Source: Acidobacteriota bacterium (lineage in GTDB: Bacteria > Acidobacteriota > UBA6911 > RPQK01 > JAJDTT01). From it: DNA of 64,000 bases. Both the position numbers and the translations under genes were made by a program. The stretch covers positions 2,496,001 to 2,560,000 of the forward strand of contig OZ242374.1 in NCBI GenBank assembly GCA_965209055.1, written 5' to 3'. Below are positions 3,846-30,469 of the stretch, piece after piece. How positions within the stretch are numbered: the first letter of the stretch is position 1; each line of letters begins with the position of its first letter. Under the pieces are notes generated by a model, which saw nothing but the letters and a program-made list of their open reading frames with translations, had not been told where the DNA came from and searched no databases.

Positions 3846-4620
3846 TTAGCCTGTGCCTCCCGAATGCTGGCAAGCGCGTGCGAACTGACGTACCCCGCAT
3901 AGCGCATCGTCGTGCTGATCGTCGATTGGCCCATCAGCTTCTGCACCCTCCTCACGTCCACCCTCTGTATCAGCCAATGGCTGCACCGGAATCACCTCAG
4001 ATCGTGAAATCCGACCTTCAATCCCACCCGGTCGGCGGCTCGCCGTAGCGGCTTGTCGGGATTCACTAATCTCATGCGTGTCCGGGTGTTGACGAAGACG
4101 GATGGGGTGTTCAGGTGCCGGGGGAGCCCCGACAGGCATCCGGTAGCGTACTGCGAGAGCGGAATCTCTCTCGGCTCGCCGTCCTCGGTGAATTCCACCC
4201 AGAGTAATTTGCGAACCAAATCCGCCCGTGCCAGGTGAGCGACAACGCTTCGCCGTTTGGAATCCCAGTCTCGACAATCACTGCTACCATGGCTTGCAGG
4301 TAGCGATTGTCGACCGCGTCGACCAAGTCGCGGAACTGTTGAACCGTTAAAGGCCGGAAGATCTTTTTGGCCTCCTTCAGTTTGGGGAACCAAACCAGCG
4401 GGTGCGTGTCCACTGCCCCGCACTCCAGCGCGTGGAAAAACAGCTTGCTGATGGCGGTGGTGCCGCGGTTCACCGTGGCCGGTTGGGCTTGTTTATTCCT
4501 CAGTGCGACGTGGTGGTGCAAAACTTTGCGTAGGAACTCCTTCAGGGGAGTGTTCCCCAGCATGGTGTAGAGGCTCTTGAACGATAGCGCATAGCCCCGT
4601 CAGGAGCGCATGCGAGGTTT
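3846..4620 (-). pseudogene. Degenerate tyrosine recombinase
   Basis: Fragments in different frames: QPATVNR..., ETGIPNGEALSLTW, VGFHDLR* followed by VQKLMGQSTISTTMRY; frameshifts and an in-frame stop. Confidence 0.8.
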
Positions 4621-4767: not shown

Positions 4768-5274
4768 ATGATTCCATTCGCAAAGAGACCGGCCGATATC
4801 AGCGCCAAAGCCATCGACGATTACGGGTGCTTGGTCCTCAAGGTCGCCTATAGTTATGTCCCGAACCCGAACCCGGACCAGGCCCAAGAGATCCTCCAGG
4901 AGACCTTCCTCCGCTTCCACACCGCTTGCACTCGCGGAAAGGTAATCGCCTATTCCACGGCATGGCTCTGTCGAGTGGCGACCAACGTCGCCTTCAAGGC
5001 GCGTCGCCGGCAGCGAGCGATGCTTGCCATAGAAGAGGACACTGCGGTGGAAGCCAACGCCAGCAGAGACGTGGAGCGTCACTTGCTCATGGACCGGGTG
5101 CGCGACTTGGCAGCCGATTTGCCCGAGCGCCAGCGAACCGTCTTTGCCCTGCGCAACTTTGAGGGATGGACCTTCGCCGAAATTGCTGCGCAACTGGAGG
5201 GCAGCGAGAGTGCGGCAAGGTCCAGCGAGTACAAAGCACGGAGGAAGATCCGAGCTTGGATGAGAACCGTCTGA
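4768..5274 (+). CDS. ECF sigma factor
   Basis: AQEILQETFL, AWLCRVATN, LPERQRTVFALRNFEGWTFAEIA (regions 2 and 4). Confidence 0.85.
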   Translation: MIPFAKRPADISAKAIDDYGCLVLKVAYSYVPNPNPDQAQEILQETFLRFHTACTRGKVIAYSTAWLCRVATNVAFKARRRQRAMLAIEEDTAVEANASRDVERHLLMDRVRDLAADLPERQRTVFALRNFEGWTFAEIAAQLEGSESAARSSEYKARRKIRAWMRTV

Positions 5275-5287
5275 GAGGACCAGAACA

Positions 5288-5700
5288 ATGGACAGAATTG
5301 GTTTTGAGAGGAGATTGGGCGATTACGTGCGGGGCGAGGTGCCGGATGCGGTCGCGCGGGAAATCGATGACTACCTGGCCGCTCACCCGGAGGCGGTTGA
5401 CGATGTCGAGGCTGTACGCACCATACTGGAACTGAGTATTGACATCGGCGCCACGGAGCCACCCGCCCAGCTCCTGGCAGCCGCACGCGCCAGCACGCTA
5501 AAGGCGATTCGCTCGGAGAGCGAGCCACAGTAGCGGCCGAGATCTTGCCCTATGGCTGCCACGGGCAGCCTGGAATAAGGCGATTGCAATCGTTCTGGCT
5601 CCCGTATTCCTAGATGTCTTCTGGCGCGGAGCCTCCACTCCAGCTTGGGCACGCGTAGTCGAAGAAGTGCGCAAGCTCTCTCCGGTGCACACGGTGGACT
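5288..5700 (+). pseudogene. Truncated anti-sigma factor
   Basis: 81-aa anti-sigma-like N-terminus ends at TAG (5531-5533); a TM-like segment and AWARVVEEVRKL continue in another frame. Confidence 0.6.
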
Positions 5701-5958
5701 GCTTCCGTGGGAAAAAGTGAGAGTGGGTGCCGGTGAAGCACTAGATTAAGGCTCGGCATTTTTGCCGCGCCGGAATCTCTTCAATACGCCATCTGCGGAG
5801 AAGGTGTCGGCAATGCCGTTGATGTCGGCCGTTCAGGCATTCACCCCGGCCTGATTCGAGCAGCGTCAGGATTGGCTGGCTCACTACCCGCTAGGCGGGA
5901 CCTGTTTCTCATCTACCGGCATCGGATCCTGGGCTTGTTCAGAGCTAGAAGATTGAAT

Positions 5959-6510
5959 CTAGCAAGAGGTTGACGCGGGCCATGTAGCCTTACGAGGGGA
6001 GGGACGGCCGTCGAGAAAGCGGACCGGGCTCGGGAGGCCCTCAGGGGCGCCGTAGGCAGCAGCCCCACAGTCGGATCTGCTCCGCCTCCTGAGGACGAGA
6101 AGTAGGCGTCCCGTCACGAGGAGGAACCTGTGTACCTGAGCCCGGCGGCCCTCGAATATTCCTTGAGATGCAACCACCAATAGCGCCGTGACGACCGGCA
6201 GCAGAAGAATCCACTTCACGGAATAGGGTTTCCTCAGCCTTCAGTTGTGAGAGGCAGAGTCCCGTTGAGGGTTCAGTGTCCCCTCACCATGGCTTGGCCG
6301 GTGGTCGCGGTCTCGGTATTGCTGTTTCAACAGTCCCAGATTCAGCCGTCCGGTCTCGCGGTCCAGATTGGACACCGGTTCGTCCGTGAGGATCAGACTC
6401 GGTTCCATGATGAACGCCCGGGCAATGGAAATCCGTTACCGTTGACCGCCCGAGAGCTGCGTGGCCCTCCGGTAGAGATGCTCTTCCGCCAGTTCAACCT
6501 GATCCTGAAT
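5959..6510 (-). pseudogene. Remnants of an ABC transporter ATPase (PhnC-like) and a downstream membrane protein
   Basis: Minus strand reads [34 protein letters not shown], with a stop just after the signature motif. Confidence 0.7.
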
Positions 6511-6672
6511 CATGCCGGCCCGGCGGCGGTGGTGGGTCGGGAACCCGCCCAGCAGGCCGCGCTAGCGCAAGTTGGAAAACTGGGACAGGGTTCCGCAAAG
6601 AACGTTCCCCAAGACAGTTTCCCGTCAGACGCTGACACTGAACCAGATTCCCGTTGTTTCTACTCCCCTAGG

Positions 6673-6710
6673 GTGTCCGATATCGGACACTGAATCCCAA
6701 AACCGGACAT
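6673..6710. promoter_or_regulatory. Tandem enhancer (UAS) palindromes for a sigma54 activator
   Basis: Perfect palindrome GTGTCCGATATCGGACAC plus a degenerate copy 20 bp downstream; the same motif precedes two other sigma54 promoters. Confidence 0.75.
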
Positions 6711-6795
6711 CCGAAGTGTCCATCGCCGCAACTAAGATTCTCTTGGGATTCTCTAAGGTATTGCAATATAAAGAGATATACGAATGTCTCAGGAT

Positions 6796-6811
6796 TGGCA
6801 CACTGATTGCT
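6796..6811 (+). promoter_or_regulatory. sigma54 -24/-12 promoter
   Basis: TGGCACACTGATTGCT. Confidence 0.85.
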
Positions 6812-6850
6812 TGGATGTTTCACATGAGGAACAACCAAGAAGGGGGTGTG

Positions 6851-8188
6851 ATGATGTCCAAGATCCTGATGGCCGCATTTTCCGTCCTCATCGTTAGTAG
6901 CGCTTGCTACGACAAACAGCAGATTTCGTGGAGCCGGAGTGGCGAGTTCGAGTGGCGGCATGGACCGCGTACCGTCTTTGTGAAGCATCTTGGTGAAATC
7001 GGGTTCGCAGACAATGACGAAGACGTGCTGCGAGTTTCCACTGGGGGGTACCTGTTCATCCAGGAATCGGCACTTTTGGACTCAAGGAGTATGGAATTCA
7101 CTCGCCAGCCGGACGGCTCGGTCGGTCGTCGGTTCGTCGTCAATGGCGAGGAGACAGCCGTGGACCGGGATGCAAGGGAGTGGCTGGCGCGAATGCTTCC
7201 GGAGATTTTGAGGCGGACCGGCATCAACGCCAGCGAAAGAGCGACGCGAATTCTTGATCGCCAAGGATTTGAGGCCCTATTTGCAGAAGTGCGCCTGATG
7301 CCCAGAGATACCGACCGGGTCCGTTATCTTCAGGAAGCGATCGAGTCAGGGGGCCTAACCGAGGACCAAAAGCTACGGATTGTCCACGATGTGGCGACTA
7401 CGTTTTTTATGCCCGACTCCAAGAAGTCGGCAGTGCTTTCAGACTGGGCTCACAAATACAGCGAAGTCGAGCTTCTGGCCGGTCTCTTGAAAGCAGGAGA
7501 AACCATTGGTGCCGACAGCATCAAAGCACGCTTTGTACTCAGTCTCATCGAGCTGCATTGCGGTTCGGCAGAAAAGATGGGAATGATCCTCAATTCGGTG
7601 AAGGGAATTGGATCGGACTCACACAAGGAGAAGGTGCTTGGTGTGGCCACGGACTGTCTATCCCAAGACGATCACTTTCGAGAAGCATTCTTCGATTCTC
7701 TGAACAGTATCCTTTCGGACAGTCATAAGTCGAGTGTGCTGCGCAGGGTCGTCGAAAAATCTGCCGTTACTCCGGTCTCATCGAGTGTTGCCCGGAGCGC
7801 CGAGTTGGGCAAACAACTCGGCGCTAATGAGACTGTGGCGTCGGCACGAGTCAATGGAACCCATGACGTTTACATCGAAGATCCGGGGGTCAGTAAAGAA
7901 TTCTATGGGGCAGTGGACCGAATTGGCTCGAACAGTATTCGGGCGAGTGTTCTCTTGGCAGTTGTACGCCAGTCCGCTTTAGGAAAGACGACCCTCTTGC
8001 GAGTCATCGAATCTGCCGAGTGCCTTCTGAACGATTCCATCAAGGCGGATGTGCTGACGCAGATCGCTCACGTCGCCAGCGACGACGCTGAGGTTTCGAT
8101 GCGAATTCGACAGGCCGCCGAAACGATTGGGTCCAGTCATCTCTTCCGCACGGTTTTGTCGCAACTCGAAGCGAACTCGTCGAGGTAA
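6851..8188 (+). CDS. Exported helical-repeat protein, possibly a lipoprotein; resembles the C-terminal region of M56/BlaR1-like proteins
   Basis: Start reassigned downstream of the sigma54 promoter; signal peptide ending VSSAC; repeated I-x-SD-S-x-K-x-x-VL units. Confidence 0.65.
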   Translation: MMSKILMAAFSVLIVSSACYDKQQISWSRSGEFEWRHGPRTVFVKHLGEIGFADNDEDVLRVSTGGYLFIQESALLDSRSMEFTRQPDGSVGRRFVVNGEETAVDRDAREWLARMLPEILRRTGINASERATRILDRQGFEALFAEVRLMPRDTDRVRYLQEAIESGGLTEDQKLRIVHDVATTFFMPDSKKSAVLSDWAHKYSEVELLAGLLKAGETIGADSIKARFVLSLIELHCGSAEKMGMILNSVKGIGSDSHKEKVLGVATDCLSQDDHFREAFFDSLNSILSDSHKSSVLRRVVEKSAVTPVSSSVARSAELGKQLGANETVASARVNGTHDVYIEDPGVSKEFYGAVDRIGSNSIRASVLLAVVRQSALGKTTLLRVIESAECLLNDSIKADVLTQIAHVASDDAEVSMRIRQAAETIGSSHLFRTVLSQLEANSSR

Positions 8189-9042
8189 AAAAATGGAATG
8201 GAAGGGATTCGACGTCATTAAGCTGAACTGTTGGAAATTCGGATCAGTAGTCGGTGGCACATCATGAGAAATTTTCTTGAGAGTTCTCCCTTGAGCATAG
8301 GCGCCTTGGCTTTTCTGATTGGTCTTCTTCTTTTCCAAAGAGCCGAAGAGTTTGATCAACATCATAGTCATCATTCCTCTAATTCTCCCCTGACGGACCT
8401 GTTAGAACTGGAGACCCCGTTCGCAGAGACTATGCTCAAAACTCAGGATGGAGCTGGGTTGGAGTTGTTAGATCGTTGGACGTTTCTAATATACTCAGGT
8501 GCTCTGGACGAGCGTGGTTTCGACTATCCTGCCGTTTTGCTGAACCGGTACCATAAACGTGGGCTTAATTTTGTGTACGTTATGCCCTCAGCTAGTAACC
8601 CTGCCTGGCTACGATCCGTTTCAAGTTCTCTTAATGGCAGAGCACAAGGCTTTTCTATCGCTTTAGACGAGAGGGGAACGTTTGCAGAGTTGTTAGGTGT
8701 TCCGCGCGGCAGTCATGAGACATATACGGTTTTCGTAGGACCCGACACCCGAGTCAGGTTTGCTGTCCGGAAGAGTCTCCCATCAGATGTCATGCGCCAA
8801 CTCGTAGAACGCAATATTTTGGGGACGATAGACTACAGTCCTCCTTCTCCTCCTCCGGGCTATGTTGTTGGTTCACCGGTCCCCGAAATCGCTGTGCGCA
8901 ATGCCAGGACAGGGAGATCCATTCCTTTATCTACGCTTCTACAAGGACAAGGAACAGTATTGTTCTACCGTGCCAATTGCACGTCGTGCGGGATCGAATC
9001 TGAGATTCACAGACTCGCTACACTGGAAAGAACGGGAATTAA

Positions 9043-10231
9043 GGAAGGTCTGAACAAGTCGATTCAAGGGACGTGAGAGCCGTTATTGTTTCGGCTTTGC
9101 GGTGTCCAAACCTTCATTATGAGGAGTACCACCCTGGCAAGGCTCTGGGTGCCCCCATTCTCAGACTGATTCCCCGAATCTCGACGCACCTCTCCCGCGC
9201 CCGGATCAGGCGTTCACGCCAGAGCGCTCGGCGATCATCAGATTGGCGAACCCCACCAGCAAATAGATCCGTTGGGTGTTTTTCGCCAGCCCCCGGTAGC
9301 GCACCTTCGCGTAGCCGAAATGCCGTTTCAGGTACCCGAATACATGTTCTGCCTTGGCCCGAACCGACGCTTTGCGCCGCTCGGCCAACGCCGCCTCACT
9401 CTCCGGTGGCAGCCGCCAACGCTTCCCCGGCTTCATCATCACCTGCCAATCCACCGGCCGATCTCGATTCTCCGACCGCTTTCCCACTCCCTGGTATCCC
9501 GAATCCCCCCAAACTTGAGACTCCGAGCCGTGCAGCAACTCACCGGCTCGCGTCACGTCATGCTCGTTAGCCGGCGCCGTCACCACCGTGTGCGCCACCC
9601 CCGTCTGGGCGTCCACCCCCAGGTGGGCCTTCATTCCGAAATACCACTGTTTTCCCTTCTTCGTCTGATGCATCTCCGGGTCCCGCGCCCCCTCCCTGTT
9701 CTTGGTCGAGGAAGGCGCCGCCAGGATACTCGCGTCCACGATCGTCCCCCGGCTCAGCCGCAGGCCTTGCCGCTGCAGGTGAGAACCGATCTCCTCGAAC
9801 AGCGCCTCCCCCAGACCATGCTCCTCCAGCCGATGACGGAATTTCAGAATCGTCGTCTCGTCCGGCAGCGGCCCCGTGAGCTTCAGGCCCACGAACCGCC
9901 GCACCGACTCCACCTCATAGAGCAGATCCTCCATCCCCGGATCGCTCAGGTTGTAAAACAGCTGCACGCAGTGGATCCGAAGCATCGTCGAGAGCGGGTA
10001 GGGACGCCGTCCCCGTCCCGCTTTCGGGTAAACGGGCCGAATCCGGGCTTCCAACTGCTCCCATGGAATCAACCGGTCCATCCGGGCCAGAAATCTCTCC
10101 CGACGGGTCACCCGCTTCTTGCCGTCGTATTCCAGATCTGCGAACGTTCGTTGCGACATCATCTATCCTCCATGCAGTGATGATGGAAGAATTATCGTGC
10201 AGAACGCTGACTCGACTTAATCAGACCTTCC
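9043..10231 (-). mobile_element. IS5-family insertion sequence (1189 bp) with TTAA target duplication
   Basis: Inverted repeats GGAAGGTCTGAACAAGTCGA / TCGACTTAATCAGACCTTCC; TTAA at 9039-9042 and 10232-10235. Confidence 0.95.
9206..10162 (-). CDS. IS5-family DDE transposase
   Basis: TRRERFLARMD, GTIVDAS, RDPEMHQTKKGKQWYFGMKAH, GDSGYQG, RAKAEHVF. Confidence 0.95.
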   Translation of the reverse strand: MMSQRTFADLEYDGKKRVTRRERFLARMDRLIPWEQLEARIRPVYPKAGRGRRPYPLSTMLRIHCVQLFYNLSDPGMEDLLYEVESVRRFVGLKLTGPLPDETTILKFRHRLEEHGLGEALFEEIGSHLQRQGLRLSRGTIVDASILAAPSSTKNREGARDPEMHQTKKGKQWYFGMKAHLGVDAQTGVAHTVVTAPANEHDVTRAGELLHGSESQVWGDSGYQGVGKRSENRDRPVDWQVMMKPGKRWRLPPESEAALAERRKASVRAKAEHVFGYLKRHFGYAKVRYRGLAKNTQRIYLLVGFANLMIAERSGVNA

Positions 10232-10612
10232 TTAACATAGCCGAGCTGAAAACCTATGCCATTTTCAGTTACAGCTATTCGTGGCTAGACTTTAAGAGTG
10301 CCGCCGCGCGGTCGGGCGTTTCGTCTGAGATATACGTAGCAACTCATCTTATAACGGAATGGGAAGATCCGTATCGAACTGCGACTGAGCTTAATAGGCC
10401 CATGGCAATAGAAATCGTAGACAACTACATCGCTAAATCTACACCCCTGCCAACATGGATGTCAGCGAAAATCGCAGGCCACAGACAACGGACGTCGGTT
10501 GTCGCGCAACCAGGTCGAATCGGTGAAGACAGATGATTCGTAATCGAATTGAGTTACGGCCGACGTATCAACGTGGGTGGGCTCATACCGTAACAATGAG
10601 TTAGGAGATACC

Positions 10613-11620
10613 ATGCTCGGATTCCTGTTAATGTCTGCCACCATTGTATTTTCAGTCGGAGTGCTGGGAGCTTCATCGAGTGCCTCGACGGTAAGTTCAA
10701 TCGGTATAGAATCAATGTGTGCTGGCGACTTGTTCGCTTGGACTGGGGCGATTCAGAAATTCCAATCTGGACTGCTTGTGCTCGATCAGACAAATCACAG
10801 AATTGTTGTTGTGGGCAATGATGGAACAGCCAAGAATCAGTTCGGGGAGATCGGTCAAGGATACGGGGATCTATTGTTTCCTGAGGCGTTAGCGACGGAC
10901 ACTCATGGGCGCATTTATGTTGTGGACCATGGAAGTTCCTTTATCAAGATTCTTAACGTCGATGGCCAACCGATCACGAGATTTCCTATCGACACTTTCG
11001 TTGATAGCGTGACAGTAAATAGCCGTGGGCACATTCTCGCCAACACACCAAGAAAGGGAAGAATCGTTACCGTATATTCTTTTGACGGGGCTGAGATCAC
11101 GCGCTTTGGGGGACTGATGCCTCTAGATCTGGCGTATCCGGATCAAAACAATGAAGGCAATACAGAACACTGGACAATTCCACTGTCACGGGCGCATGTA
11201 GCAGTTGGTCCAGAAGACGAGATATATGTTGTCTTTAGACATGTGCCGATTGTCCGGAAATACTCCTCTTCAGCTAAGTTATTGTGGGAACACCGCATGA
11301 TGGGAGGGCCGATAGATTCACTCGTGAAGACATTTTGGTCGGAACCCGACTCCATACCTACCACGTCCGCCCGTAACGTGGATGGAGTTCAGTTGAGCAA
11401 CATAGTTATGGACGTTAGTCTGAGCGGTCACGATAATCTGGTGGTCTTGCTTGCTAATGGCGCCTTGTGCGCAATTGATCCTGAGGGGCGTCAGTTGTTA
11501 CTAGCCAAGCTTACGGGCGCCGCTCCACGTGTATATCGCAGTATAACAATCGTCCGGAACTCGTTGGTTCTGGTCGATAGGAGCACATGTTATCGCAGCA
11601 CAACACCCATCGAATTCTGA
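10613..11620 (+). CDS. Secreted 6-bladed beta-propeller (NHL-like) protein
   Basis: RBS AGGAG before ATG 10613; signal peptide; LVLDQTNHRIVV, GEIGQGYGDLLFPEALATDTHGRIYVVD. Confidence 0.8.
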   Translation: MLGFLLMSATIVFSVGVLGASSSASTVSSIGIESMCAGDLFAWTGAIQKFQSGLLVLDQTNHRIVVVGNDGTAKNQFGEIGQGYGDLLFPEALATDTHGRIYVVDHGSSFIKILNVDGQPITRFPIDTFVDSVTVNSRGHILANTPRKGRIVTVYSFDGAEITRFGGLMPLDLAYPDQNNEGNTEHWTIPLSRAHVAVGPEDEIYVVFRHVPIVRKYSSSAKLLWEHRMMGGPIDSLVKTFWSEPDSIPTTSARNVDGVQLSNIVMDVSLSGHDNLVVLLANGALCAIDPEGRQLLLAKLTGAAPRVYRSITIVRNSLVLVDRSTCYRSTTPIEF

Positions 11621-11742
11621 CGTAGTACCGTCTCCCATGAGGAGAAAATATGAAGATCAAGGATGCTGTTGCTAGAAGTCCCCCGCCCTCGCTATGGATA
11701 GAGAGGTTTATCATTCATGCTTTGACGAAGGAGGATAAGATC

Positions 11743-11955
11743 ATGTATTCCATTCCGCGAAAACTGGGAACTGTTTCGTATCTGGCGGTGTGTGTATGTA
11801 TGTTGGTGGTGGGAGCCGCACGGACCAATTCTATCTTGGCTTCCTTTTGTTCTGTCAACTGTTCAGATGGCAGCAGTTGTTCAATTTCATGTAGTAATAA
11901 CGCCAATTGTGGTTGCAGTTGGTGGTCGGGCGCCTACTGTTATTGTGACAGCTAA
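11743..11955 (+). CDS. 70-aa secreted Cys/Ser-rich peptide (candidate precursor)
   Basis: Strong RBS AAGGAGG; Sec-like signal ending ILA; core SFCSVNCSDGSSCSISCSNNANCGCSWWSGAYCYCDS. Confidence 0.85.
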   Translation: MYSIPRKLGTVSYLAVCVCMLVVGAARTNSILASFCSVNCSDGSSCSISCSNNANCGCSWWSGAYCYCDS

Positions 11956-11983
11956 CGACAGCAGCACTACACCGGCATGACAG

Positions 11984-12021
11984 GTGCGGCGGCGGCGATG
12001 CATCGTTCGCCGCCGCCGCAC
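11984..12021 (+). terminator. 15-bp GC-rich hairpin after the peptide gene (mRNA stabiliser or attenuator; no U-tract)
   Basis: GTGCGGCGGCGGCGA-8 nt-TCGCCGCCGCCGCAC perfect inverted repeat. Confidence 0.7.
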
Positions 12022-12085
12022 GTAGCCTAGTGTTCGCACAGGTAGCGAGTTCGGTATTTTGGTCGAAGCAACGGAGCTCGGATCC

Positions 12086-12547
12086 ATGAAGATATATCGA
12101 CGGTCTCCGATCATATTTGGTGTGCTGGCAGTAGCATTGAGTGGGGGGATAACGGTGTTGGTTATGCTCCTCCTGCAGGGTGACGGGCCACATTTGTCAT
12201 TTGATGAGAGGGTTGTCGATTTTGGCACTTTCAATCATGACAGTAAGATCGAACACAAATTCTCTTTTACAAACCGGGGCGATGCGACCCTGAAGATACT
12301 ACGTGTAGTGAGCGACTGTGGTTGCACGGTATCCACGGTAACCTCCAGGCGGTTGGCTCCGGGGGCCTCCGGAGCGATAACTGTTGCCGTCGAGCCACCA
12401 ATCAACGCTCCTGCCTATATAAATGCTCCCGAATCCGAAACTGTGTGGAGAGAGGTCCGGGTGTTCAGTAACGATCCCCAGGAACCATTGCAAGTGTTAG
12501 TGCTCAAAGGTGAGATGGATCGTCGGGATCCTTCTCTTTCTAAATGA
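12086..12547 (+). CDS. DUF1573 Ig-like domain protein, membrane anchored
   Basis: FSFTNRGDATLKILRVVSDCGCT motif; N-terminal TM segment. Confidence 0.85.
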   Translation: MKIYRRSPIIFGVLAVALSGGITVLVMLLLQGDGPHLSFDERVVDFGTFNHDSKIEHKFSFTNRGDATLKILRVVSDCGCTVSTVTSRRLAPGASGAITVAVEPPINAPAYINAPESETVWREVRVFSNDPQEPLQVLVLKGEMDRRDPSLSK

Positions 12548-12574
12548 TCTGCAACCGTAATGGGAGGCTGACGA

Positions 12575-14140
12575 GTGAATATAGGTTGGGTTAAAACAGT
12601 GCTCAGGACAGGTTGGATATCGGGCTTCTGCCTGGTCGTACTGTTCGGACTTTTGGTCCGGACATACAATCTTGGTGAGGCCGGACTATCGTGCAACGAA
12701 TTCGTAACCATACTCACATCACTTCGAGAGGATAGGGAGATAGGCAGCCAATCCAATACACCGTTCACACCAATAACTCTAGATCACGCGGCGGCCACCG
12801 TTACGCCGAGCTCAGATTCCGGAATGCTCAGTGTCGCCGAAGCTGCTAGAGAGAAATGGCAGTTGCCTATGTATTTCTGGATGATGAATGGATGGATTAA
12901 ATTATTCGGAAACTCAGAATTGAGCATCAGGCTGCCTGCGGCACTTATGGGGTCCTTCTCTATCGTCCTAGTGTTTTTGATTTGCAGGCTCATTTTCGAC
13001 ATACGAGTTGCGATTCTTGCTGCTCTCTCCGTCTCCGTCCTGGCAGGTCACATTGAGTTGTCACGAGAAGCGACTTCGCATGTGTTCCTTCTGGGAGTAA
13101 TCCTAGCATCGACATTCTTGGTGCTTGTTTCATGCTTCCAGTCAGCGTCACGTGTTGCATTCGGCGCATACTTGATTACTTCGATCATTGGCATGTTTAC
13201 ACATTATCTCTATCTCCCATACGCTGCCTGTCATGTGATGATCATGCTCTATGGCCTTCGGATGCCAAAGTCACCCATTAATACACTGAAAGCATCGGTA
13301 TCCGTAATAGTATTTTTACTCGGGGTTGTTGGCGTATGCATTATGACACCCTTGTACAGTTCTACGCCATGGCAACATTTGGCACCATTGAAATCGGATA
13401 GTTACATTTACGATGTAGGTAGTGGGGCAGTGGGCGTGATATGGTCCAAGGGCCTGCCCCTTCTCGCAAACTCGTTTGACATTGTTGTCGCGATTACTCT
13501 TATTGTTGTGTCTTTTCGGCTTCTTTCCAAAAGAGAGTCCTCTGCCGTAGTCTTAGGTCTGTGGTTTGCAATACCATTGATCGTTGTTGCGGCGTTGGAT
13601 TTTACCAGTGGGACTGGATTCTTGGGATTGCCGGAATTGTGGATGATACTCGGTTTTCCCGTTCTGCTGGTCATTGCATCGGGCATGGATTGGCTGTTCA
13701 ATAAACCGCTAGGTAGGGAGGCATTGATAGTGTATCTTTCTTGTCTTACCGCTAGTGGCCTGTGGGTCCATGTCAGCGCAACGGATGGACAAGTTGACCA
13801 GCATCGGCAGTTGACGGAGTTTATTGAATCCGTCACGGATACAAATAGCGATGACATCACAATTGTAGAAGGCGGTGAAATCGCCAAGGGAGCAATCGCC
13901 TATTATGCCCGGAGAAATCTGACTATGAAGATATGGGAACCAAACACATTGATGTCACCGTCGAGTTCTGAACTTGATGAGTTTCTTTTGCCCGCTGCCA
14001 TGCGAGGTGCGAAAATTCGATTGGTCACTTTCGGGAATAGCGACGGTAACATAAGACGCCGGGTGGAAGAAGTGGGATTTCGGACCACTGGAGACGACAG
14101 GCGATTTGGCCATGTAAATGTCTATCAATATACATGGTGA
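12575..14140 (+). CDS. GT-C fold glycosyltransferase (GT39/PMT_2, ArnT-like)
   Basis: LVRTYNLGEAGLSCNE, PMYFWMMNGWIKLFGNSELSIRLPAAL, IELSREA; many TM segments. Confidence 0.8.
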   Translation: MNIGWVKTVLRTGWISGFCLVVLFGLLVRTYNLGEAGLSCNEFVTILTSLREDREIGSQSNTPFTPITLDHAAATVTPSSDSGMLSVAEAAREKWQLPMYFWMMNGWIKLFGNSELSIRLPAALMGSFSIVLVFLICRLIFDIRVAILAALSVSVLAGHIELSREATSHVFLLGVILASTFLVLVSCFQSASRVAFGAYLITSIIGMFTHYLYLPYAACHVMIMLYGLRMPKSPINTLKASVSVIVFLLGVVGVCIMTPLYSSTPWQHLAPLKSDSYIYDVGSGAVGVIWSKGLPLLANSFDIVVAITLIVVSFRLLSKRESSAVVLGLWFAIPLIVVAALDFTSGTGFLGLPELWMILGFPVLLVIASGMDWLFNKPLGREALIVYLSCLTASGLWVHVSATDGQVDQHRQLTEFIESVTDTNSDDITIVEGGEIAKGAIAYYARRNLTMKIWEPNTLMSPSSSELDEFLLPAAMRGAKIRLVTFGNSDGNIRRRVEEVGFRTTGDDRRFGHVNVYQYTW

Positions 14141-14225
14141 TATGCCGTGCGTTCGAACGAGTCCGTTGTCCGATCACCCTGTAAGCGCAACATTCACGAG
14201 TAGGAATTTCAGGAGTAGCAGGGCC

Positions 14226-15053
14226 ATGAAAGTAAATGGAACAGTATCCCCGGAACGTAAAGTGGCGATTGTTGGGTTCGCGCCGACAACGAGGCATCAA
14301 GCACCGTTTTTCGACGATGAGTTCGAGATATGGGGGTTGAACGAATTGTACATGTTCATCCCTCGATTTGACAGGTGGTTTGAGATGCATAGGCGTGACG
14401 AATTTGAGAATAGCATAAGAAACAATCGGCACTTGGAGTGGTTGAGGAAGTGTAAGAAACCTATCTATATGCAGGAGCATTTCGATGATATTCCGGGATC
14501 GATTGAATATCCGAAGGAGCGAATGGTCAAGGCCTTTGGAAACTACTTTCGTAGCACTTTCAATTATATGCTGGCCTTGGCAATTGATGAGCAATTCACT
14601 CATATTCACCTATACGGGATTGATTTGATAAGCAAGGGTGAATACATTGAGCAGCGGCCGAGTGGAGAGTACTTTTTGGGTATAGCAAAAGGTAGAGGCA
14701 TTGAAGTCCGTGTTCCCCCCGACTCGTCCCTTCTGAGGGAGGGTGCGTATGGATACGATCAGTATACTGTGGCGGAACAATACGAGATCCGGTTAAACGA
14801 GCTGACAATTCGCAAGCGGAAACTGGAAGGTGATCTCAATCAGGTCATGGGTTCTATTGGAGAATGCCAAGGGCAAACGAAGGTTGGGGCTCCGGGTGTA
14901 TCGTCGGTTACGCAGCTACTGAAGTTGTCGTTAAGTAGTAAACTGCGGCTGAGGATCGAGGCGTTACAGGACCAGCATCGCGTCTTGGCAGCGGAACTCA
15001 ATGTTGTCCTGGGTGCAATTAATGAGTGTAAGTATTGGATGTCACGAGGATAG
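14226..15053 (+). CDS. Putative CMP-nonulosonate-dependent transferase (CstII/GT42-, Maf-like fold) with C-terminal coiled coil
   Basis: RKVAIVGFAPT, EFEIWGLNELY and STFNYMLALAIDEQFTHIHLYGIDL parallel the CstII-type motifs; adjacent to a CMP-NulO synthetase. Confidence 0.55.
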   Translation: MKVNGTVSPERKVAIVGFAPTTRHQAPFFDDEFEIWGLNELYMFIPRFDRWFEMHRRDEFENSIRNNRHLEWLRKCKKPIYMQEHFDDIPGSIEYPKERMVKAFGNYFRSTFNYMLALAIDEQFTHIHLYGIDLISKGEYIEQRPSGEYFLGIAKGRGIEVRVPPDSSLLREGAYGYDQYTVAEQYEIRLNELTIRKRKLEGDLNQVMGSIGECQGQTKVGAPGVSSVTQLLKLSLSSKLRLRIEALQDQHRVLAAELNVVLGAINECKYWMSRG

Positions 15054-15212
15054 ATGTGCCACGTAGTCGGACGGAGTATCTGCAAAGTTGTGAGAATGAG
15101 TGAGCCAAGGATAAAATGTACGCGGCCGTATCCGGCGGGGAAAGGGAGAAACCTGACGGGGGTGGTTGCTGGTGAGGGGTATGTACACAAGTGTGAAAGG
15201 GTGAAGAGCTTG

Positions 15213-15923
15213 ATGAAACCGATTTGCGTGGTTCCGGCTAGGGGCGGGTCTAAGCGACTTCCTCGAAAGAACATAATTGAGCTGGCGGGTAAGCCATTGG
15301 TGGCGTGGGTCATTGGCGCCGCGAGGAGATCCGGCATATTTGCTCATGTATATGTTTCGACCGAAGATGACGAAATCAAGGCGGTTGCCGAGCGTTATGG
15401 CGCGGAGGTCCCGTTCCGACGACCGCGAGACTTGGCGAATGATTCGGTCAGTGCCATAAAAGCAGCTGCACATATGGCTGACACGCTACGCAAGATGGGA
15501 GAAAGGTTTGGAACAGTTTGCGTCAGTGCACCGACCGTACCGCTATTGACGGCAAGAGAGTTTTGCTTCGCCTATGAAATGTTTCGGTCGAGTGGGGCGG
15601 ATGTTCTGTACAGCGTGTGCAAGATGGAAGAGCCACCGCAGTGGGCTCTCAGGCGCAGTGGTAGATGGCTTACACCTTTATTTGACGGCGACAGTTTCGA
15701 AAAGGAGTCGCAAGACCTCGAACCTGCTTACCGAATAGTCGGAGGAATCCAGTTTTTCCGTGCGGATCATCTCAGGCGGAACAGCAATACGTACATAGCC
15801 GATAAAATGATCGGTTACGTGATTGGGCCGGAGATAGGAGTGGAAATCGACACAGCGGAGGATTTACGCAAAGCGCACTATTATCTTCAGCGGCGGGCGT
15901 CGAGGGAGATTGGGTCGATGTGA
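15213..15923 (+). CDS. Acylneuraminate cytidylyltransferase (NeuA/PseF family)
   Basis: VVPARGGSKRLPRKNI, VSTEDDEI, VPFRRPRDLAND, EIDTAEDL. Confidence 0.9.
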   Translation: MKPICVVPARGGSKRLPRKNIIELAGKPLVAWVIGAARRSGIFAHVYVSTEDDEIKAVAERYGAEVPFRRPRDLANDSVSAIKAAAHMADTLRKMGERFGTVCVSAPTVPLLTAREFCFAYEMFRSSGADVLYSVCKMEEPPQWALRRSGRWLTPLFDGDSFEKESQDLEPAYRIVGGIQFFRADHLRRNSNTYIADKMIGYVIGPEIGVEIDTAEDLRKAHYYLQRRASREIGSM

Positions 15924-16071
15924 TGGAATCGCTATGGAGGCGGCGAGTCCATCTGATTTCTGGTGATGAGGGAGAACATGTGTGCTGAAGGCGAGCCTGA
16001 CCGGCGAGAGCGTGTCTAAAGCAGTTTGCTTCCTGGAGGGGGGTGAAGACGTCGGGCTGGAACCTCACACC

Positions 16072-17385
16072 CTACGCCACGGGCAACACTAGCACTGCTC
16101 TGCAGCCCGGCGCCTGCTTCCGGTTGGTCAGGCTAAGGGAGCCGCCGTGGGCTTCGGCGATCTGCCGGGCCAGGACCAGACCGATGCCACTCCCCTGGGG
16201 TTTGGTTGTGAAGAATGGGACGAACAGGTTGGCGGTGTTGGCCAGGCCTTTTCCCTCGTCCTCAACGTAGACTTCCAATTGTTCGCCGACCCGCCTCCAG
16301 CCGATGCTAGCGCCCCCTCCGGTTTCCGATGCCGCGTCAACCGCATTGTGAACCAGATTGATCAGCAACTGCTCCAATTGATCCGGGTCAGCGGGGAATA
16401 GGACCGGTGGCCCGGCGCGAACCACGACCGGCATCCGGGTCTCTAGGCCCACGACCTTCCGGACGGAGTCTTCGATGGAAACCGGGCGCTTGTCCGGGGC
16501 CGGTAACCGGGCGAGCCGGGAGTAGGCACCCATGAACCGGCTCAGAGCCTGGGCCCGCGAGGAAATGACGCGCAGACCTTCCCGCAGGTCATGTTCCCGG
16601 TCCGAATTCGAGATGTCCTGCTCCAAAATGGATTCGAGACTCCCGGCGATGGACTTGATGGGGGTCAGCGAGTTGTTCAATTCATGTCCCAAAACCCGGA
16701 TCAGCCGGCGCCAGGCCTGCCGCTCCTCCTCTCGGAGCGTCTGGTTCAAATCCGTCAGGACCACCAGGTGATGGGGCCGACCCTCCTCGCGAAACACGAT
16801 CCGGTGCATTCCCCAGCGGCCGCTCCCCCCGGGCAATTGGATTTGGAGCGTCTGGACCGGGTCTCCTTTCAAGCAGTCCTTCAGTTTCAGCTCAGCCGCT
16901 GACTTGCCCAACGCTTGGTCTCCCGGAATTCCTAGGAGTCTCTGCCCGGCTCGGTTGATGAGTCGCAGGCACCATCCGTCATCGAACGCGAAGACCGCAA
17001 CGTCGATCTCCTTCATCACCTTCTGCAGCAGGGCGGCCGCCTCGACCGCTCCCAGGCGTTGTCGCCGTAGGACCTCACCCAGAATGTTCAGTTCCGCGGC
17101 AAACTCGCCCAGTCCCTTGTCGGTCCCACTCCGGGCCCGGATGGAGAAGTCCCCTTCTCGAATCGCCGATACCACGTTGGCCAGTGTCTGAAACTGAAAC
17201 GTCAACTTCCGATACAGTAGGATCAGGCCGCCTGACAGGGCTCCCACGGCCAGCAGCGAGAGGCCGTAACGCACTCGGGGATCGTGATCGCCGGTCCAGA
17301 GCAGGACCAGTAGCGCGGCACAGGAGGGGAGGCCGGCGGCAAGAGAGATCAAGATGATCCGCGCCTGAAAGCCCAGCCGATTCAT
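16072..17385 (-). CDS. Sensor histidine kinase (HAMP-PAS-HisKA-HATPase)
   Basis: Two TM segments, LGHELNNSLTPI, LINLVHNA, DEGKG, PFFTTKPQGSGIGL; ATGA overlap with the regulator. Confidence 0.9.
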   Translation of the reverse strand: MNRLGFQARIILISLAAGLPSCAALLVLLWTGDHDPRVRYGLSLLAVGALSGGLILLYRKLTFQFQTLANVVSAIREGDFSIRARSGTDKGLGEFAAELNILGEVLRRQRLGAVEAAALLQKVMKEIDVAVFAFDDGWCLRLINRAGQRLLGIPGDQALGKSAAELKLKDCLKGDPVQTLQIQLPGGSGRWGMHRIVFREEGRPHHLVVLTDLNQTLREEERQAWRRLIRVLGHELNNSLTPIKSIAGSLESILEQDISNSDREHDLREGLRVISSRAQALSRFMGAYSRLARLPAPDKRPVSIEDSVRKVVGLETRMPVVVRAGPPVLFPADPDQLEQLLINLVHNAVDAASETGGGASIGWRRVGEQLEVYVEDEGKGLANTANLFVPFFTTKPQGSGIGLVLARQIAEAHGGSLSLTNRKQAPGCRAVLVLPVA

Positions 17386-26608: not shown

Positions 26609-28573
26609 TTAGGCGGTCCACAACACTCCCCCCGGTTCCGCTGGAATCCGGACCGAGAGCCAGGTCCGGCTCCGGTCGATGCGGATGCGGTTTTGGGGGA
26701 TGGGGGCGGTGGCCCGCTCCAGCAACGCCTGGCGTTGGTCCAGGGCGTTCAAAAAGCCACCGTAGCGGGCGAGGCACTCCCGGTCGTTGGTCCGGACGGC
26801 CTGCCCGATGCGGCGGATGACCTGCTCCTCCTCCGGGGACAGGGGCTCGAACTCGGCCTCGGGACCCGGGCCGGCCCAGCGCCGCAGGACCTTCCCGGCC
26901 CGCTCCCGGCGGAGGTCGTCGCGGGCCACCGCGACCACGTGGACCGGGCGGTCTTGTGCGCGTAGCGCCGTCCAGAGCCGGGCGTGCTCCGCCCCCCACG
27001 AGAGCAGCTCCGAGTCGGTGTCCCGGCCGGGATCGACGTAGACGAAGGTCGCCCGGTCCTCCTCCAGGGCCAGTGGGAGCTTGCGGGGGAAGTAGCGGCT
27101 GCGTCCCTGGGCATGGCCGGCATAGTGCCGGCACGGGAACAGCCGCCGGGAAAGGCCCAGCGCCTCCAGCGCCCAGGCCTTCTCCCGCCCGGTGGGAAGC
27201 CACCGATGATTGGGGTGATCGAGAACGTAATCGAGCGAGAGCAGCCGGCGGAGCCGGACCCAGGCGGAAGATCCGGGGTGCGGGACGCGCTCCAGGTCCA
27301 GCGCCCGGTACAGGGCCTTGGCGGCGATGCGGCAGGTCCGGGTGGTGGTGGGCAGGCCGTCGAGGTCCTCCTCGACGCCGTGGCGGCGTGCGACGAGGCG
27401 GCGGACGAAGCGCAGGGCGCGGTTTCTCCGGCAGCGGAAATGGGCGCAGAACTGGGCGCGGGTGAACCAGCCGCCGTACCGGCAGACCAGGGCGATCCAC
27501 TCGGCCTCGGGACCGTGCCAGCCGAAGCGCTCCAGCATGTCGGCGCCCGGCGCCGGACGGGGCGGTCCCAGAATAGGGAGCGGAGGGGAGACGAGCGCCG
27601 GGTCAATCTGGCGGAGACGGATACGCGGTGCCTCCTGGACGCCGGGACGGCCGGAGGACGGCTCGGCGGTCCGCTCCTTGAGCTCGCGGGCGCCGGCGAG
27701 CAGGGCCTCGCTCATGCGCCAGGCGTCGGCAGCGGCCCGGACCAGTTCCCGGGGATCGGACTCCAGGAGTTGGATCCAGCGTTTGGTGTAGAACTCCCCA
27801 TTGCGGGGCCGGTGGCCGAGGCCGATCCGGACGCCGGTCATCAGGGCCGCGATCTCGGCCCGGAGATCTTCGCGGGCGGCAGCAGGCGAGGCGGTCCCGT
27901 CCCGAAGCGCGGCGGCGAGGCCCGGGCGGTTCAACCGGTCCGGGTGGCCGGTCCCGTGGCCGAGTTCGTGAAGAAGGGTCTGGTAATAGCGCTGGGCGCC
28001 GACGAATTGGGAGGGTGGCGGCAGGACGATCCGGTCCTCTTCCAGGTGGTAGTAGGCCCGGTCGCCGGGTTCGTGGCGGCGGCCGACGCCGCTGGCTTCG
28101 AGCAGGCGCTCGACCCGTTCGTGGACCTCCCAGGAAGGCGGGGGCCGGTCGTCGCGCGGTGGGAGGAACAGGCCCTCGGTCTGCTCGACGTTGAAAAGAC
28201 CGACCGAGCCCTCTTCGGAGCCGTCCTCCGCTGGGGGGCTCTCTGCCGGCGGGGAATCAAGATCCCGAGTCGGGAGGGGGAGGACGCCCTTCTGGTCCTT
28301 AGAAATTCGGCCCCCGGCGGCTTCGATCCGGTCCCGGGTGCCCCAGCGGGGATCCGAGTATCCCCGCTCGACGGCCAGGCAGAGAAGGTGGAGTCCCTGG
28401 ACCCCGTCGTAGTACTGGCGGGAAGGGAAGCGCTCGGGCCAGATCCGGTCCTCGGAAGACTGGTGTTGTTGCCAGGGGGACCGGCGGTTGCGAAGCTGGG
28501 CGAGGACCCGCAGGACGAAGGTCTCCAGGACCGGCCGGGGTTCGGGGGGTGGGACTCGGCGGCGCCAGAGCAT
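26609..28573 (-). CDS. ArdC-like ssDNA-binding/zincin antirestriction protein fused to a C-terminal domain of unknown function
   Basis: GYSDPRWGT...KDQKG; RAYYHLEEDRIVLP...LLHELGHGTGHPDRLNR; start moved to ATG 28573 (RBS AGAGGT) because the longer ORF overlaps a tRNA. Confidence 0.75.
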   Translation of the reverse strand: MLWRRRVPPPEPRPVLETFVLRVLAQLRNRRSPWQQHQSSEDRIWPERFPSRQYYDGVQGLHLLCLAVERGYSDPRWGTRDRIEAAGGRISKDQKGVLPLPTRDLDSPPAESPPAEDGSEEGSVGLFNVEQTEGLFLPPRDDRPPPSWEVHERVERLLEASGVGRRHEPGDRAYYHLEEDRIVLPPPSQFVGAQRYYQTLLHELGHGTGHPDRLNRPGLAAALRDGTASPAAAREDLRAEIAALMTGVRIGLGHRPRNGEFYTKRWIQLLESDPRELVRAAADAWRMSEALLAGARELKERTAEPSSGRPGVQEAPRIRLRQIDPALVSPPLPILGPPRPAPGADMLERFGWHGPEAEWIALVCRYGGWFTRAQFCAHFRCRRNRALRFVRRLVARRHGVEEDLDGLPTTTRTCRIAAKALYRALDLERVPHPGSSAWVRLRRLLSLDYVLDHPNHRWLPTGREKAWALEALGLSRRLFPCRHYAGHAQGRSRYFPRKLPLALEEDRATFVYVDPGRDTDSELLSWGAEHARLWTALRAQDRPVHVVAVARDDLRRERAGKVLRRWAGPGPEAEFEPLSPEEEQVIRRIGQAVRTNDRECLARYGGFLNALDQRQALLERATAPIPQNRIRIDRSRTWLSVRIPAEPGGVLWTA

Positions 28574-28781
28574 GAGGATCGCACCTCTTCCGGGAATGCG
28601 GGTCTGGAACCAGGATCTCGTGGATTGAGGATACACTCCGGAGAAAACCCCTGTTGGGATCTTCCCTGGCTGTTGGAGACGGATTCGCCGGTCGGGGAGG
28701 CCGGAACCGTCGGTGGTGGCTTCCGGGCGCGCTTCCTGGATATGATCGGTTCGCCGGTCCCCGGTGGAGAGGTGGATGGAT

Positions 28782-28868
28782 GCCCGGGTGGCGAAACCGG
28801 CAGACGCGCGGGACTTAAAATCCTGTGGAGGTTCTCCCTCCATGTGGGTTCGACTCCCACCCCGGGCA
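28782..28868 (+). tRNA. tRNA-Leu(TAA), island-borne, CCA not encoded
   Basis: GCCCGGG acceptor stem, D-arm GGCGAAACCGGCAGACGC, anticodon loop CTTAAAA, long variable arm, T-arm GTGGGTTCGACTCCCAC. Confidence 0.9.
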
Positions 28869-28979
28869 CTCTTTGAAAGCCCCCCGCCACAGGCCGCCCA
28901 GGAGATTGAAAGCCGGTTCCGTTCCCTTCCAGGCGATCTCTGGATGTCTTGGGTTTTTTCAACGGGAAACGAGCTGGCG

Positions 28980-30230
28980 CTAGAGACCACCGCTCAGGTG
29001 GATTCCTGAGTCTTGATCCAGTCGCTTTGGATGCGTCGGAACGGCATCAGTTTTCAGTTGATCGAGGTAGTCGGCCCACTCCTGCATCATCTTTCGCCGT
29101 TCCGGCAGATAGGCCGTGCGGTTGTAGGCTCGGCCGTTGGGGTCCCGCACCGCGTGTGCCAACTGGTGCTCGATGAAGTCGGGACGAAAGCCCAGCACCT
29201 CATCCAGGATCGTTCTTGCCATCGCCCGAAACCCATGGCCCGTCATCTCCTCCTTGCCGACACCCATACGCCGCAGGGCGGCGAGAACGGCATTGTCGCT
29301 CATGGGCCGGTCTCCCCTCGGAGTGCGGGCACTCGGAAACACATAGCGCCCCTGCCCGGTCAGAGGGTGTAGTTCGCGCAGGATCTCCACCGCTTGGCGG
29401 GAGAGCGGAACGATATGGCGAATCTCGGTCTTGCTGACTGTGTAGCGCCACTCGGCCGCCTCCAGATCGATGTCCGACCACTGAGCTTGGCGTAACTCTC
29501 CAGGTCGAACGAAGACCAGCGGAGCGAAGCGCAGGGCACAGCGCACGATCAGTGTCCCTTGGTAGCCGTCCAAGACTCGCAGCAAGGGACCCACCTGCTT
29601 CGGTTCGGTGAGCGCTGCAAAGTGTTTGGTCCTGAACGGCGGCAACGCACCCCGTAAGTCACCCGAAGGGTCACGCTGTGCCCTTCCAGTGGCCACGGCA
29701 TAGCGAAATACTTGGCCGCAGATCTGAAGCGTCCGGTGGGCACTCTCCAGAGCCCCCCGTTGTTCGATCCGGCGAACGACCGTCAACAATTCGGGTGCGG
29801 TGATGGTAGACGCGGGGTTGCTGCCCATCCACGGGAAAACATCTCGCTCCAGTCGGCTGAGGACCCGGCTGGCATGACTGGTGGCCCAGTTGAGAGAATG
29901 TTTGCTGAACCATTCCCGCGCCACGGCTTCGAAGCTGTTGGCGGCCCCTTGCTCTTTCGCGGCCTTCTGCGCTTTGCGGTGCTCGCTGGGATTGATCCCC
30001 TGAGCCAATAGCCGGCGAGCCTCCTGGCGCCGAGTCCGGGCTTGTTTCAGAGATACGTCCGGATAGACACCCAGGGAGATCCGCTTCTCCTTGCCTGCGA
30101 AGCGGTATTTCAGGCGCCACCACTTGTTGCCGCGGGGAGTTAATTCCAAGTACAGACCGCCTCCGTCGAACATTTTTCGGGTCTTCGGCGAGGGTTTGGC
30201 ATGACGGATGGCAATGGCGGTGAGTGGCAT
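28980..30230 (-). CDS. P4-like integrase (arm-binding domain plus tyrosine recombinase)
   Basis: MPLTAIAIRHAKP, DGGGLYL, WRLKYRFAGKEKRISLGVYP, VRPGELR, HGFR, QLAH, AYNR. Confidence 0.95.
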   Translation of the reverse strand: MPLTAIAIRHAKPSPKTRKMFDGGGLYLELTPRGNKWWRLKYRFAGKEKRISLGVYPDVSLKQARTRRQEARRLLAQGINPSEHRKAQKAAKEQGAANSFEAVAREWFSKHSLNWATSHASRVLSRLERDVFPWMGSNPASTITAPELLTVVRRIEQRGALESAHRTLQICGQVFRYAVATGRAQRDPSGDLRGALPPFRTKHFAALTEPKQVGPLLRVLDGYQGTLIVRCALRFAPLVFVRPGELRQAQWSDIDLEAAEWRYTVSKTEIRHIVPLSRQAVEILRELHPLTGQGRYVFPSARTPRGDRPMSDNAVLAALRRMGVGKEEMTGHGFRAMARTILDEVLGFRPDFIEHQLAHAVRDPNGRAYNRTAYLPERRKMMQEWADYLDQLKTDAVPTHPKRLDQDSGIHLSGGL

Positions 30231-30260
30231 GGGGGCAACTCCTCTCGACAATTTCTAATC

Positions 30261-30290
30261 TGCCCCCAATATTGCCCCCAGATACCCCCG
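30261..30290 (+). repeat. Integrase arm-type sites
   Basis: TGCCCCCAATATTGCCCCCAGATACCCCCG mirrors 3481-3501. Confidence 0.7.
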
Positions 30291-30392
30291 GATGTCAAGA
30301 ATACTATTGGAATAGGATAGGCGAAAATTCGAGCTAAATAGCTGTTGAATAGATACTTGATGGACTTTCATGGATCTCTATGGAAGAGGAAT

Positions 30393-30469
<77 letters not shown>

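Follow-up and report, generated by a model that had tools for sequence, protein, structure and literature searches.

Gene sets that combine a small peptide, a beta-propeller and a DUF1573 protein are named in Pfam, and the sets built on NVEALA peptides come closest to the locus that we describe here. Two further groups of peptides and one form of gene organization are relevant to its interpretation. Fulvocin C is a non-cationic bacteriocin of about 45 residues with four disulfides, while tachyplesin and protegrin are disulfide-laddered beta-hairpin peptides. One variable peptide for each dedicated partner gene is the layout of toxin-immunity arrays. The literature that we searched, from which subscription journals were largely excluded, yielded no paper on the peptide-propeller-DUF1573 sets, no paper containing the word NVEALA, and no stated role for NVEALA modules. 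In the accessible parts of the papers concerned, DUF1573 and the six-blade propeller occur together only as separate table entries (PMC10434189), and fulvocin C is mentioned by name only (PMC8708641 and 10.1101/2024.10.08.616840).

A cysteine-rich peptide gene in an intergenic gap

The window, by which we mean the whole 64,000-nucleotide stretch of DNA analysed, contains a 465-nt gap between two co-oriented genes that is occupied by a small ORF. Translation bore out the frame given in a preliminary description of this DNA: positions 11743-11955 of the plus strand run from ATG to TAA and encode a 70-residue precursor. The 37 residues that follow an Ile-Leu-Ala (ILA) junction have exactly the Cys spacing claimed for them (3, 5, 3, 5, 1, 7 and 1 residues between successive Cys), with Cys at core positions 3, 7, 13, 17, 23, 25, 33 and 35. 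Their composition is also as described, with 8 Cys, 11 Ser, 2 Trp, 2 Tyr and 2 Asp and no Lys, Arg or His, and the aromatic patch of WW and YCY is present; the eight-Cys core itself spans 11848-11946 (plus strand). A Shine-Dalgarno sequence, AAGGAGG, lies where it had been reported, at 11728-11734 on the plus strand, 8 nt ahead of the ATG. The stop codon falls two codons past the last Cys of the 70-aa frame and is followed by a perfect 15-bp inverted repeat (11984-12021, plus strand), which would form an mRNA stem-loop with no U-tail; the hairpin region has a z score of -4.4, and 0 of 200 shuffles were as stable. A promoter and terminator scan gave chance-level results only, and Rfam had no match within 8000-16100.

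To control for chance, we shuffled the 465-nt gap 4000 times with its dinucleotide content preserved. An ORF of 50-110 aa appeared in 3421 of these, an ORF of that length with at least eight Cys in its last 37 residues in one, and a Cys-rich ORF plus an RBS in none (0/4000). Because the shuffles almost never give a Cys-rich ORF, and never one with an RBS, a chance ORF is unlikely, and we consider the peptide gene very probably real. Cys density alone is not unique: a six-frame count for the window gave 3 stop-to-stop segments with 8 Cys per 40 residues and 15 with at least 6.

It is also conceivable that the product is something other than the 70-residue precursor, namely a membrane-anchored 101-aa form, or that the Cys frame is incidental to a Val-rich frame (taken as 11792-11980) or to non-coding DNA. 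A second in-frame ATG lies at 11650; with a GAGGAG of its own, it would add 31 residues (11650-11742, plus strand) through a frame that is open, and the protein database entry for the peptide is this 101-aa form. The Val-rich frame, of 84 codons, overlaps the peptide gene (11726-11980). TGT makes up 9 of the 10 Cys codons of the peptide (11743-11952) versus 9 of 23 in neighbouring genes (p = 0.0014), a bias that an overlapping Val-rich frame at +1 would give. A codon-usage test did not separate the two frames, no homologs were found in the searches reported below, and recognition of the peptide by the ESM Atlas was 2001, below the usual 2300. On the other hand, the Val-rich frame has no RBS and a GC3 of 0.34, compared with 0.47 in the Cys frame and 0.45-0.57 in the neighbours. 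The RBS, the n- and h-regions, the even number and periodicity of the Cys, the stop position and the hairpin all suit the 70-aa frame, and the shuffle control likewise argues for it. We prefer the start at 11743 and judge another product to be unlikely.

Leader, cleavage sites and predicted fold

Hydropathy places a hydrophobic signal-peptide core at residues 8-26, after Arg-Lys (11764-11820, plus strand), and thus predicts a Sec-type leader on a small, Cys-containing, non-cationic precursor. The leader has two further Cys, at residues 17 and 19. Cleavage sites with small residues at -3 and -1 are found at residues 24-26 and at residue 33. The preliminary description had taken the 37 residues after ILA as the mature form; the site at residue 33 does exist, but those at 24-26 are equally present. 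Similarly, the absence of basic residues holds for the 37-aa form but not if the precursor is cut after residue 25 or 26, which would leave 44-45 residues with one Arg. The pI is 4.05-4.21 for all three cleavage sites, with no net positive charge, in agreement with the earlier view that this is not a cationic antimicrobial peptide.

Single-sequence AlphaFold2 predicted strands at core residues 3-7, 13-17, 22-26 and 32-36 (pLDDT 68). The first Cys of each strand (3, 13, 23 and 33) recurs with an exact 10-residue period, which random placement gives in 0.27% of cases, and the Cys pairs are symmetric about both turns, which random placement gives in 0.9%, both patterns having been noted post hoc. 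Of the disulfide-bonded mini-protein proposed earlier, the parts that find support are the predicted export (by hydropathy), the non-cationic character (pI about 4), the even number of Cys and the four beta-strands (by AlphaFold2). A sequence search of the PDB returned a single chance match (E 2.1). By fold, the PDB gave no Foldseek match and a best VIA-align Z of 2.4, which does not in itself show the fold to be new.

The gene neighborhood

ADOP permeases are linked to Acidobacteriota, and one encoded in the window scored above its cut-off, which makes an Acidobacteriota host probable. The peptide gene lies in a low-GC stretch (48-52%, versus 58-70% in most of the window). Along the plus strand the gene order is a CTSC redoxin split by an IS5 element, a propeller, the peptide, DUF1573, PMT_2, a CstII-like gene and a cytidylyltransferase, and the products of the redoxin, propeller, peptide and DUF1573 genes each have one N-terminal hydrophobic segment. 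The redoxin-like gene (8264-10536, plus strand) would encode a membrane-anchored protein with a CTSC motif and a weak AhpC-TSA match (E 3e-4). Its halves form one 359-codon frame once the insertion is removed, and with the redoxin interrupted in this way the module may be in decay in this genome. The IS5-family element itself (9039-10235, minus strand; transposase at 9206-10162) has 28-nt terminal inverted repeats that include the TTAA target duplication. It is inserted about 17 codons past the CTSC motif and could have polar effects on the genes for the propeller and the peptide.

The propeller gene (10613-11620, plus strand) encodes a predicted secreted six-blade beta-propeller, NHL/DUF5128-like, which we propose as the cognate partner of the peptide. 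On the other side of the peptide lies a gene for a membrane-anchored DUF1573 Ig-like protein with a CGC motif (12086-12547, plus strand). Two plus-strand genes further downstream are candidate links to the peptide, a GT-C (PMT_2) membrane glycosyltransferase (12575-14140) and a protein with a CstII sialyltransferase-like fold and a coiled coil (14226-15053). They are followed by a CMP-nonulosonate synthetase-like cytidylyltransferase (15096-15923, plus strand) that is PseF/NeuA-like and below the PseF cut-off. The assignment of ORF 14226 comes from a 98-sequence profile that found CstII sialyltransferases at E 0.03, and from a structural model (pLDDT 89) for which Foldseek found CstII sialyltransferases at E 8e-6. 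Its family has 176 matches, no Pfam entry and a long C-terminal coiled coil, with a relative in a Microcystis phage.

The preliminary description had suggested modelling the peptide together with the beta-propeller or a kinase. A link to the propeller stands by gene-set analogy only (see below), and a complex prediction for peptide and propeller scored 0.01, which we count neither way. A link to the histidine kinase finds no support: the kinase gene is on the opposite strand, outside the low-GC stretch, and is part of an efflux/ADOP operon. All 45 ORFs of at least 150 aa in window positions 1-30.3 kb were scanned, and none encodes an MNIO, radical SAM, YcaO or C39 transporter protein; beyond 30.3 kb the scan covered 22 of 72 such ORFs.

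Directly upstream of the cassette (4768-8188) are genes for an ECF sigma factor, a short anti-sigma-like ORF and a 454-aa lipoprotein-like ORF with no family match, and ABC-ATPase-like fragments were seen by eye at 5959-6408 on the minus strand. At 26612-30469, a tRNA-Leu (28782-28869) and a tRNA-Ile (30393-30469) flank a phage-type integrase, with an ArdC/zincin-like ORF beside it. This region and recombinase-like fragments seen by eye near 3992-4563 may bound an integrated element.

Database relatives of the propeller (92% identical) and of the ORF 14226 product (95%) are encoded on contigs of equal length (238,588 nt), so that one relative seems to keep the cassette; no peptide was found from this relative. 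A database protein, P0010, follows the propeller to about residue 200 and continues with sequence from about 15966-16255. One relative may thus be without about 11200-15965 (4.8 kb), including the peptide and downstream genes, or the protein may be the product of mis-assembly.

Comparison with gene sets from Bacteroidota

We searched a plasmid collection with the DUF1573 protein, which matched 7 records, and with the propeller, which matched 3, and compared all 10 loci. A small secreted Cys-rich ORF was found at 2 of the 10. One locus, in Phocaeicola massiliensis (OY726023.1, 364-15914; hereafter L125), contains the best DUF1573 match among the 7 records (33% over 96 aa). Eight small ORFs at this locus encode NVEALA proteins, and the gene that follows encodes a six-blade propeller in 6 of the 8 cases and a CTSC and DUF1573 fusion in one, the remaining ORF being at the locus edge. 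The leaders of the eight are 79% identical and the cores 20% (28 pairs); the cores have 33-48 aa and 2-7 Cys, with a net charge of 0 or below in all eight. Another locus, in Bacteroides finegoldii (NZ_OY725911.1, 9914-18577; hereafter L123), has in one run genes for DUF1573, an 8-Cys fulvocin C-related lipoprotein, TlpA and a protein of the O-antigen ligase family.

In the window, as in NVEALA-type modules, a six-blade propeller and a DUF1573 protein are encoded next to the peptide. This analogy crosses phyla, and sequence similarity is weak for every part but DUF1573. The window propeller scored at most 4.3 bits against the 7 L125 propellers, and the window redoxin aligned with the L125 fusion at E = 0.25, the CTSC motif alone being common to both. 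The peptide itself had no match to the NVEALA family (PF14055) in Pfam at E 0.1 and scored 1.5 bits against a profile of the 8 L125 leaders. The fulvocin C-related family (NF033852, cut-off 35 bits) was not matched by the 37- or the 44-aa form at E 10, compared with 111.9 for the L123 protein as a control, and an alignment of the peptide with the L123 protein was at shuffle level, as 1826 of 3000 shuffles scored as well. Altogether, the window gene set appears to resemble an NVEALA-type module by gene content, with a peptide that is neither an NVEALA nor a fulvocin C-related member.

Glycosylation and metal binding as possible alternatives

The downstream genes raise the question of whether the peptide is the substrate of their products, with sugars on Ser that include nonulosonic acid, and hence a disulfide-laddered glycopeptide. 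The 11 Ser among 37 residues would suit such a role, as would the PMT_2, CstII-like and cytidylyltransferase genes, which lie downstream on the same strand with gaps below 50 nt and in the same low-GC stretch. L123 too has a GT-C-type gene, of the O-antigen ligase family, and the peptide and glycosylation genes were apparently lost jointly in one relative. However, the CstII-like protein lacks a signal peptide and would be cytoplasmic, where its more likely substrate would be a surface glycan or one linked to lipid. The family to which it belongs is widespread (176 matches; also in a phage), there are no such genes among the 19 L125 ORFs scanned, and Ser-richness would also result from alternating beta-strands and turns. 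We regard a glycopeptide as improbable.

The same low probability attaches, in our estimate, to a periplasmic metal binder resembling metallothioneins or bufferins, in which Cys thiolates would hold Cu, Zn or Cd and the redoxin would keep them reduced. Eight Cys within 33 residues, the presence of CxC motifs, an acidic core and a Sec-type leader are consistent with this idea, bufferin precursors are described in the accessible part of one paper as Sec-exported Cys peptides (PMC11626156), and a TlpA-like redoxin could act as the reductant. Against it, the 45 ORFs of at least 150 aa in window positions 1-30.3 kb include no MNIO (DUF692) or DUF2063 gene, the core has no His or Met and no family match, and Cys that are symmetric about the predicted turns suit cross-strand disulfides. 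Because there is no MNIO partner nearby and no His, and because redox-folding genes are adjacent, chelation is the least supported of the three functions (toxin, signal or metal chelator) that the preliminary description had offered.

Searches for relatives of the peptide

No family for the peptide was present in Pfam (E 0.1), NCBIfam or PHROGs. A word-indexed search of 5.8 billion proteins found only the peptide itself (one of two candidates), and phmmer against 1.84 billion representatives found the peptide and 5 long proteins (399-846 aa) with multiple matches, and listed no short relative; relatives at 50-70% identity could escape both searches. A tblastn search of plasmid and phage collections with the peptide gave no match. 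In the ESM Atlas the best scores were 0.82 and 0.78, to unnamed clusters of 66-81 aa that are commonest in Acidobacteriota, which we treat as a lead only. We also scanned GTDB genomes with a six-Cys pattern, which occurred at 119 loci or more (at least 119), and with the propeller, for which 0 of 102 candidates were confirmed. Of the 123 pattern matches listed, 81 lay in open frames, most of them antisense runs of low complexity; the full eight-Cys spacing was found in 2 of these 81, both low-complexity Cys/Gly runs. Homologs that conserve the Cys spacing, which the preliminary description had looked to as support, were thus not found in searches that are incomplete, so that its claim is neither confirmed nor refuted.

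Two apparent real genes among the 81 open-frame matches listed, L006 and L112, encode deltaproteobacterial secreted C-x3-C-x4/5 repeat proteins with 23 and 28 Cys, and L006 has no NCBIfam match. They bring up the explanation that the peptide is a minimal or truncated C-x3-C-x5 repeat protein of this kind, which would form a structural or surface-binding beta-roll and have no dedicated partner. The exact 10-residue Cys period would fit a beta-roll, both proteins end in C-x3-C-x5-C-x3-C-x5-C-x-C, and the alignment score of L006 was reached by only 53 of 3000 Cys-fixed shuffles. That of L112, however, was reached by 697 of 3000, and because a pattern derived from the peptide had served to select both proteins, their match to it is partly circular. 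Their tails also differ (C-x-C-x4-C), and phmmer listed no such short relative among the 1.84 billion representatives. We consider this explanation quite improbable. That the peptide is a bacterial cis-defensin, of CS-alpha-beta fold and carrying a fourth disulfide, is very improbable indeed: the peptide matches CX(2,18)CX(3)CX(2,12)CX(4,17)CXC and passes the length and signal filters of a study whose list, in its accessible part, has one acidobacterial defensin, but it lacks the GXC motif that every sequence there contains, its single-sequence model (all-beta, pLDDT 68) has no helix, and the study dropped many regex-passing peptides that lacked the CSH motif (PMC11561630).

Discussion

The reading that we favor, tentatively and with somewhat less than even confidence, is that of a Sec-exported four-disulfide mini-protein with a module of its own, which by analogy would be either an antagonism peptide with an immunity propeller or a private signal with its receptor. 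Because the one-peptide-one-partner layout matches that of toxin-immunity arrays, antagonism with the propeller as immunity protein would be the most likely of these, and a private signal with its receptor would follow closely.

The antagonism reading implies the following sequence of events. The stem-loop 3' of the gene would keep the peptide message abundant relative to the downstream genes. The precursor would be exported by Sec, signal peptidase would cut the leader, perhaps with a short pro-piece that ends in ILA left behind, and the acidic eight-Cys core would fold in the periplasm into four strands with four disulfides. The module would consist of four parts, namely the redoxin (CTSC), the six-blade propeller, the peptide and DUF1573 (CGC). 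As their motifs and co-occurrence suggest, the membrane-anchored redoxin and DUF1573 proteins may help to make or sort the disulfides. The co-exported propeller would bind the peptide specifically, to judge from the one-peptide-one-propeller layout in L125, and the peptide would act as a non-cationic, receptor-targeted agent of antagonism.

There is a small chance that the peptide is the first representative of a so far undescribed class of Sec-exported bacterial four-disulfide peptides, which would occur across phyla with a cognate six-blade propeller and a folding set of DUF1573 and redoxin, and which would here also be O-glycosylated up to nonulosonic acid by the adjacent GT-C and CstII-like enzymes. 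If the window set is of the same kind as the named peptide-propeller-DUF1573 sets, such sets would occur in one more phylum, built there around an unrelated peptide, and the window peptide would be a small, synthesisable test case for the role of such peptides and propellers. A 37-44 aa four-disulfide scaffold that is predicted to be all-beta and has no match in solved structures may also deserve attention as a mini-protein. Bacterial orphans that are small, secreted and rich in Cys are not uncommon, and the case here is one sequence.

Comparison with known systems

Several described systems share part of what is seen in the window. Bufferins, MNIO-modified Sec-exported RiPPs, likewise have a Sec leader and a Cys-rich core, as the accessible part of their description indicates (PMC11626156), but there is no MNIO/DUF2063 gene in window positions 1-30.3 kb and the peptide has no DUF2282 match. 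Glycocins such as sublancin and glycocin F resemble the window in that a disulfide-bonded peptide is encoded close to a glycosyltransferase and a thiol-disulfide oxidoreductase. According to the accessible part of one paper, the leader of every known glycocin is removed by a C39 peptidase transporter (PMC12457901), whereas the window has no C39 transporter nearby, has GT-C and CstII-like enzymes rather than a GccA/SunS-type one, and encodes a peptide with a hydrophobic Sec-type leader and an all-beta model. With ladder-like beta-hairpins, as described for barrettides in the part of PMC12426817 available to us, the peptide shares Cys that are symmetric about the turn in each half. Unlike beta-hairpin peptides, the window peptide is bacterial and acidic, is predicted to form two tandem hairpins, and has no sequence or fold match.

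The fulvocin C-related family (NF033852) is alike in that L123 has a secreted 8-Cys C-terminal domain encoded beside DUF1573 and TlpA, and unlike in its Cys spacing (1, 9, 7, 4, 5, 7 and 3 in L123) and in a 150-aa pro-domain that the window peptide lacks. The closest parallel is with the sets of NVEALA (PF14055), propeller (PF17170, DUF5128, and PF15869) and DUF1573. Like them, the window has a small secreted precursor with a non-cationic Cys core after an LA junction, a neighbouring six-blade propeller, DUF1573 and a CTSC motif, and it has the four parts of L125 in one run. It differs in that its peptide is present in a single copy, with 8 regularly spaced Cys as opposed to 2-7 irregular ones in L125, a pro-piece that is 7 aa or absent, and no NVEALA match. 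The window propeller precedes the peptide, is NHL-like and has no lipobox-like Cys, and the redoxin and DUF1573 are separate genes, in a probable Acidobacteriota host.
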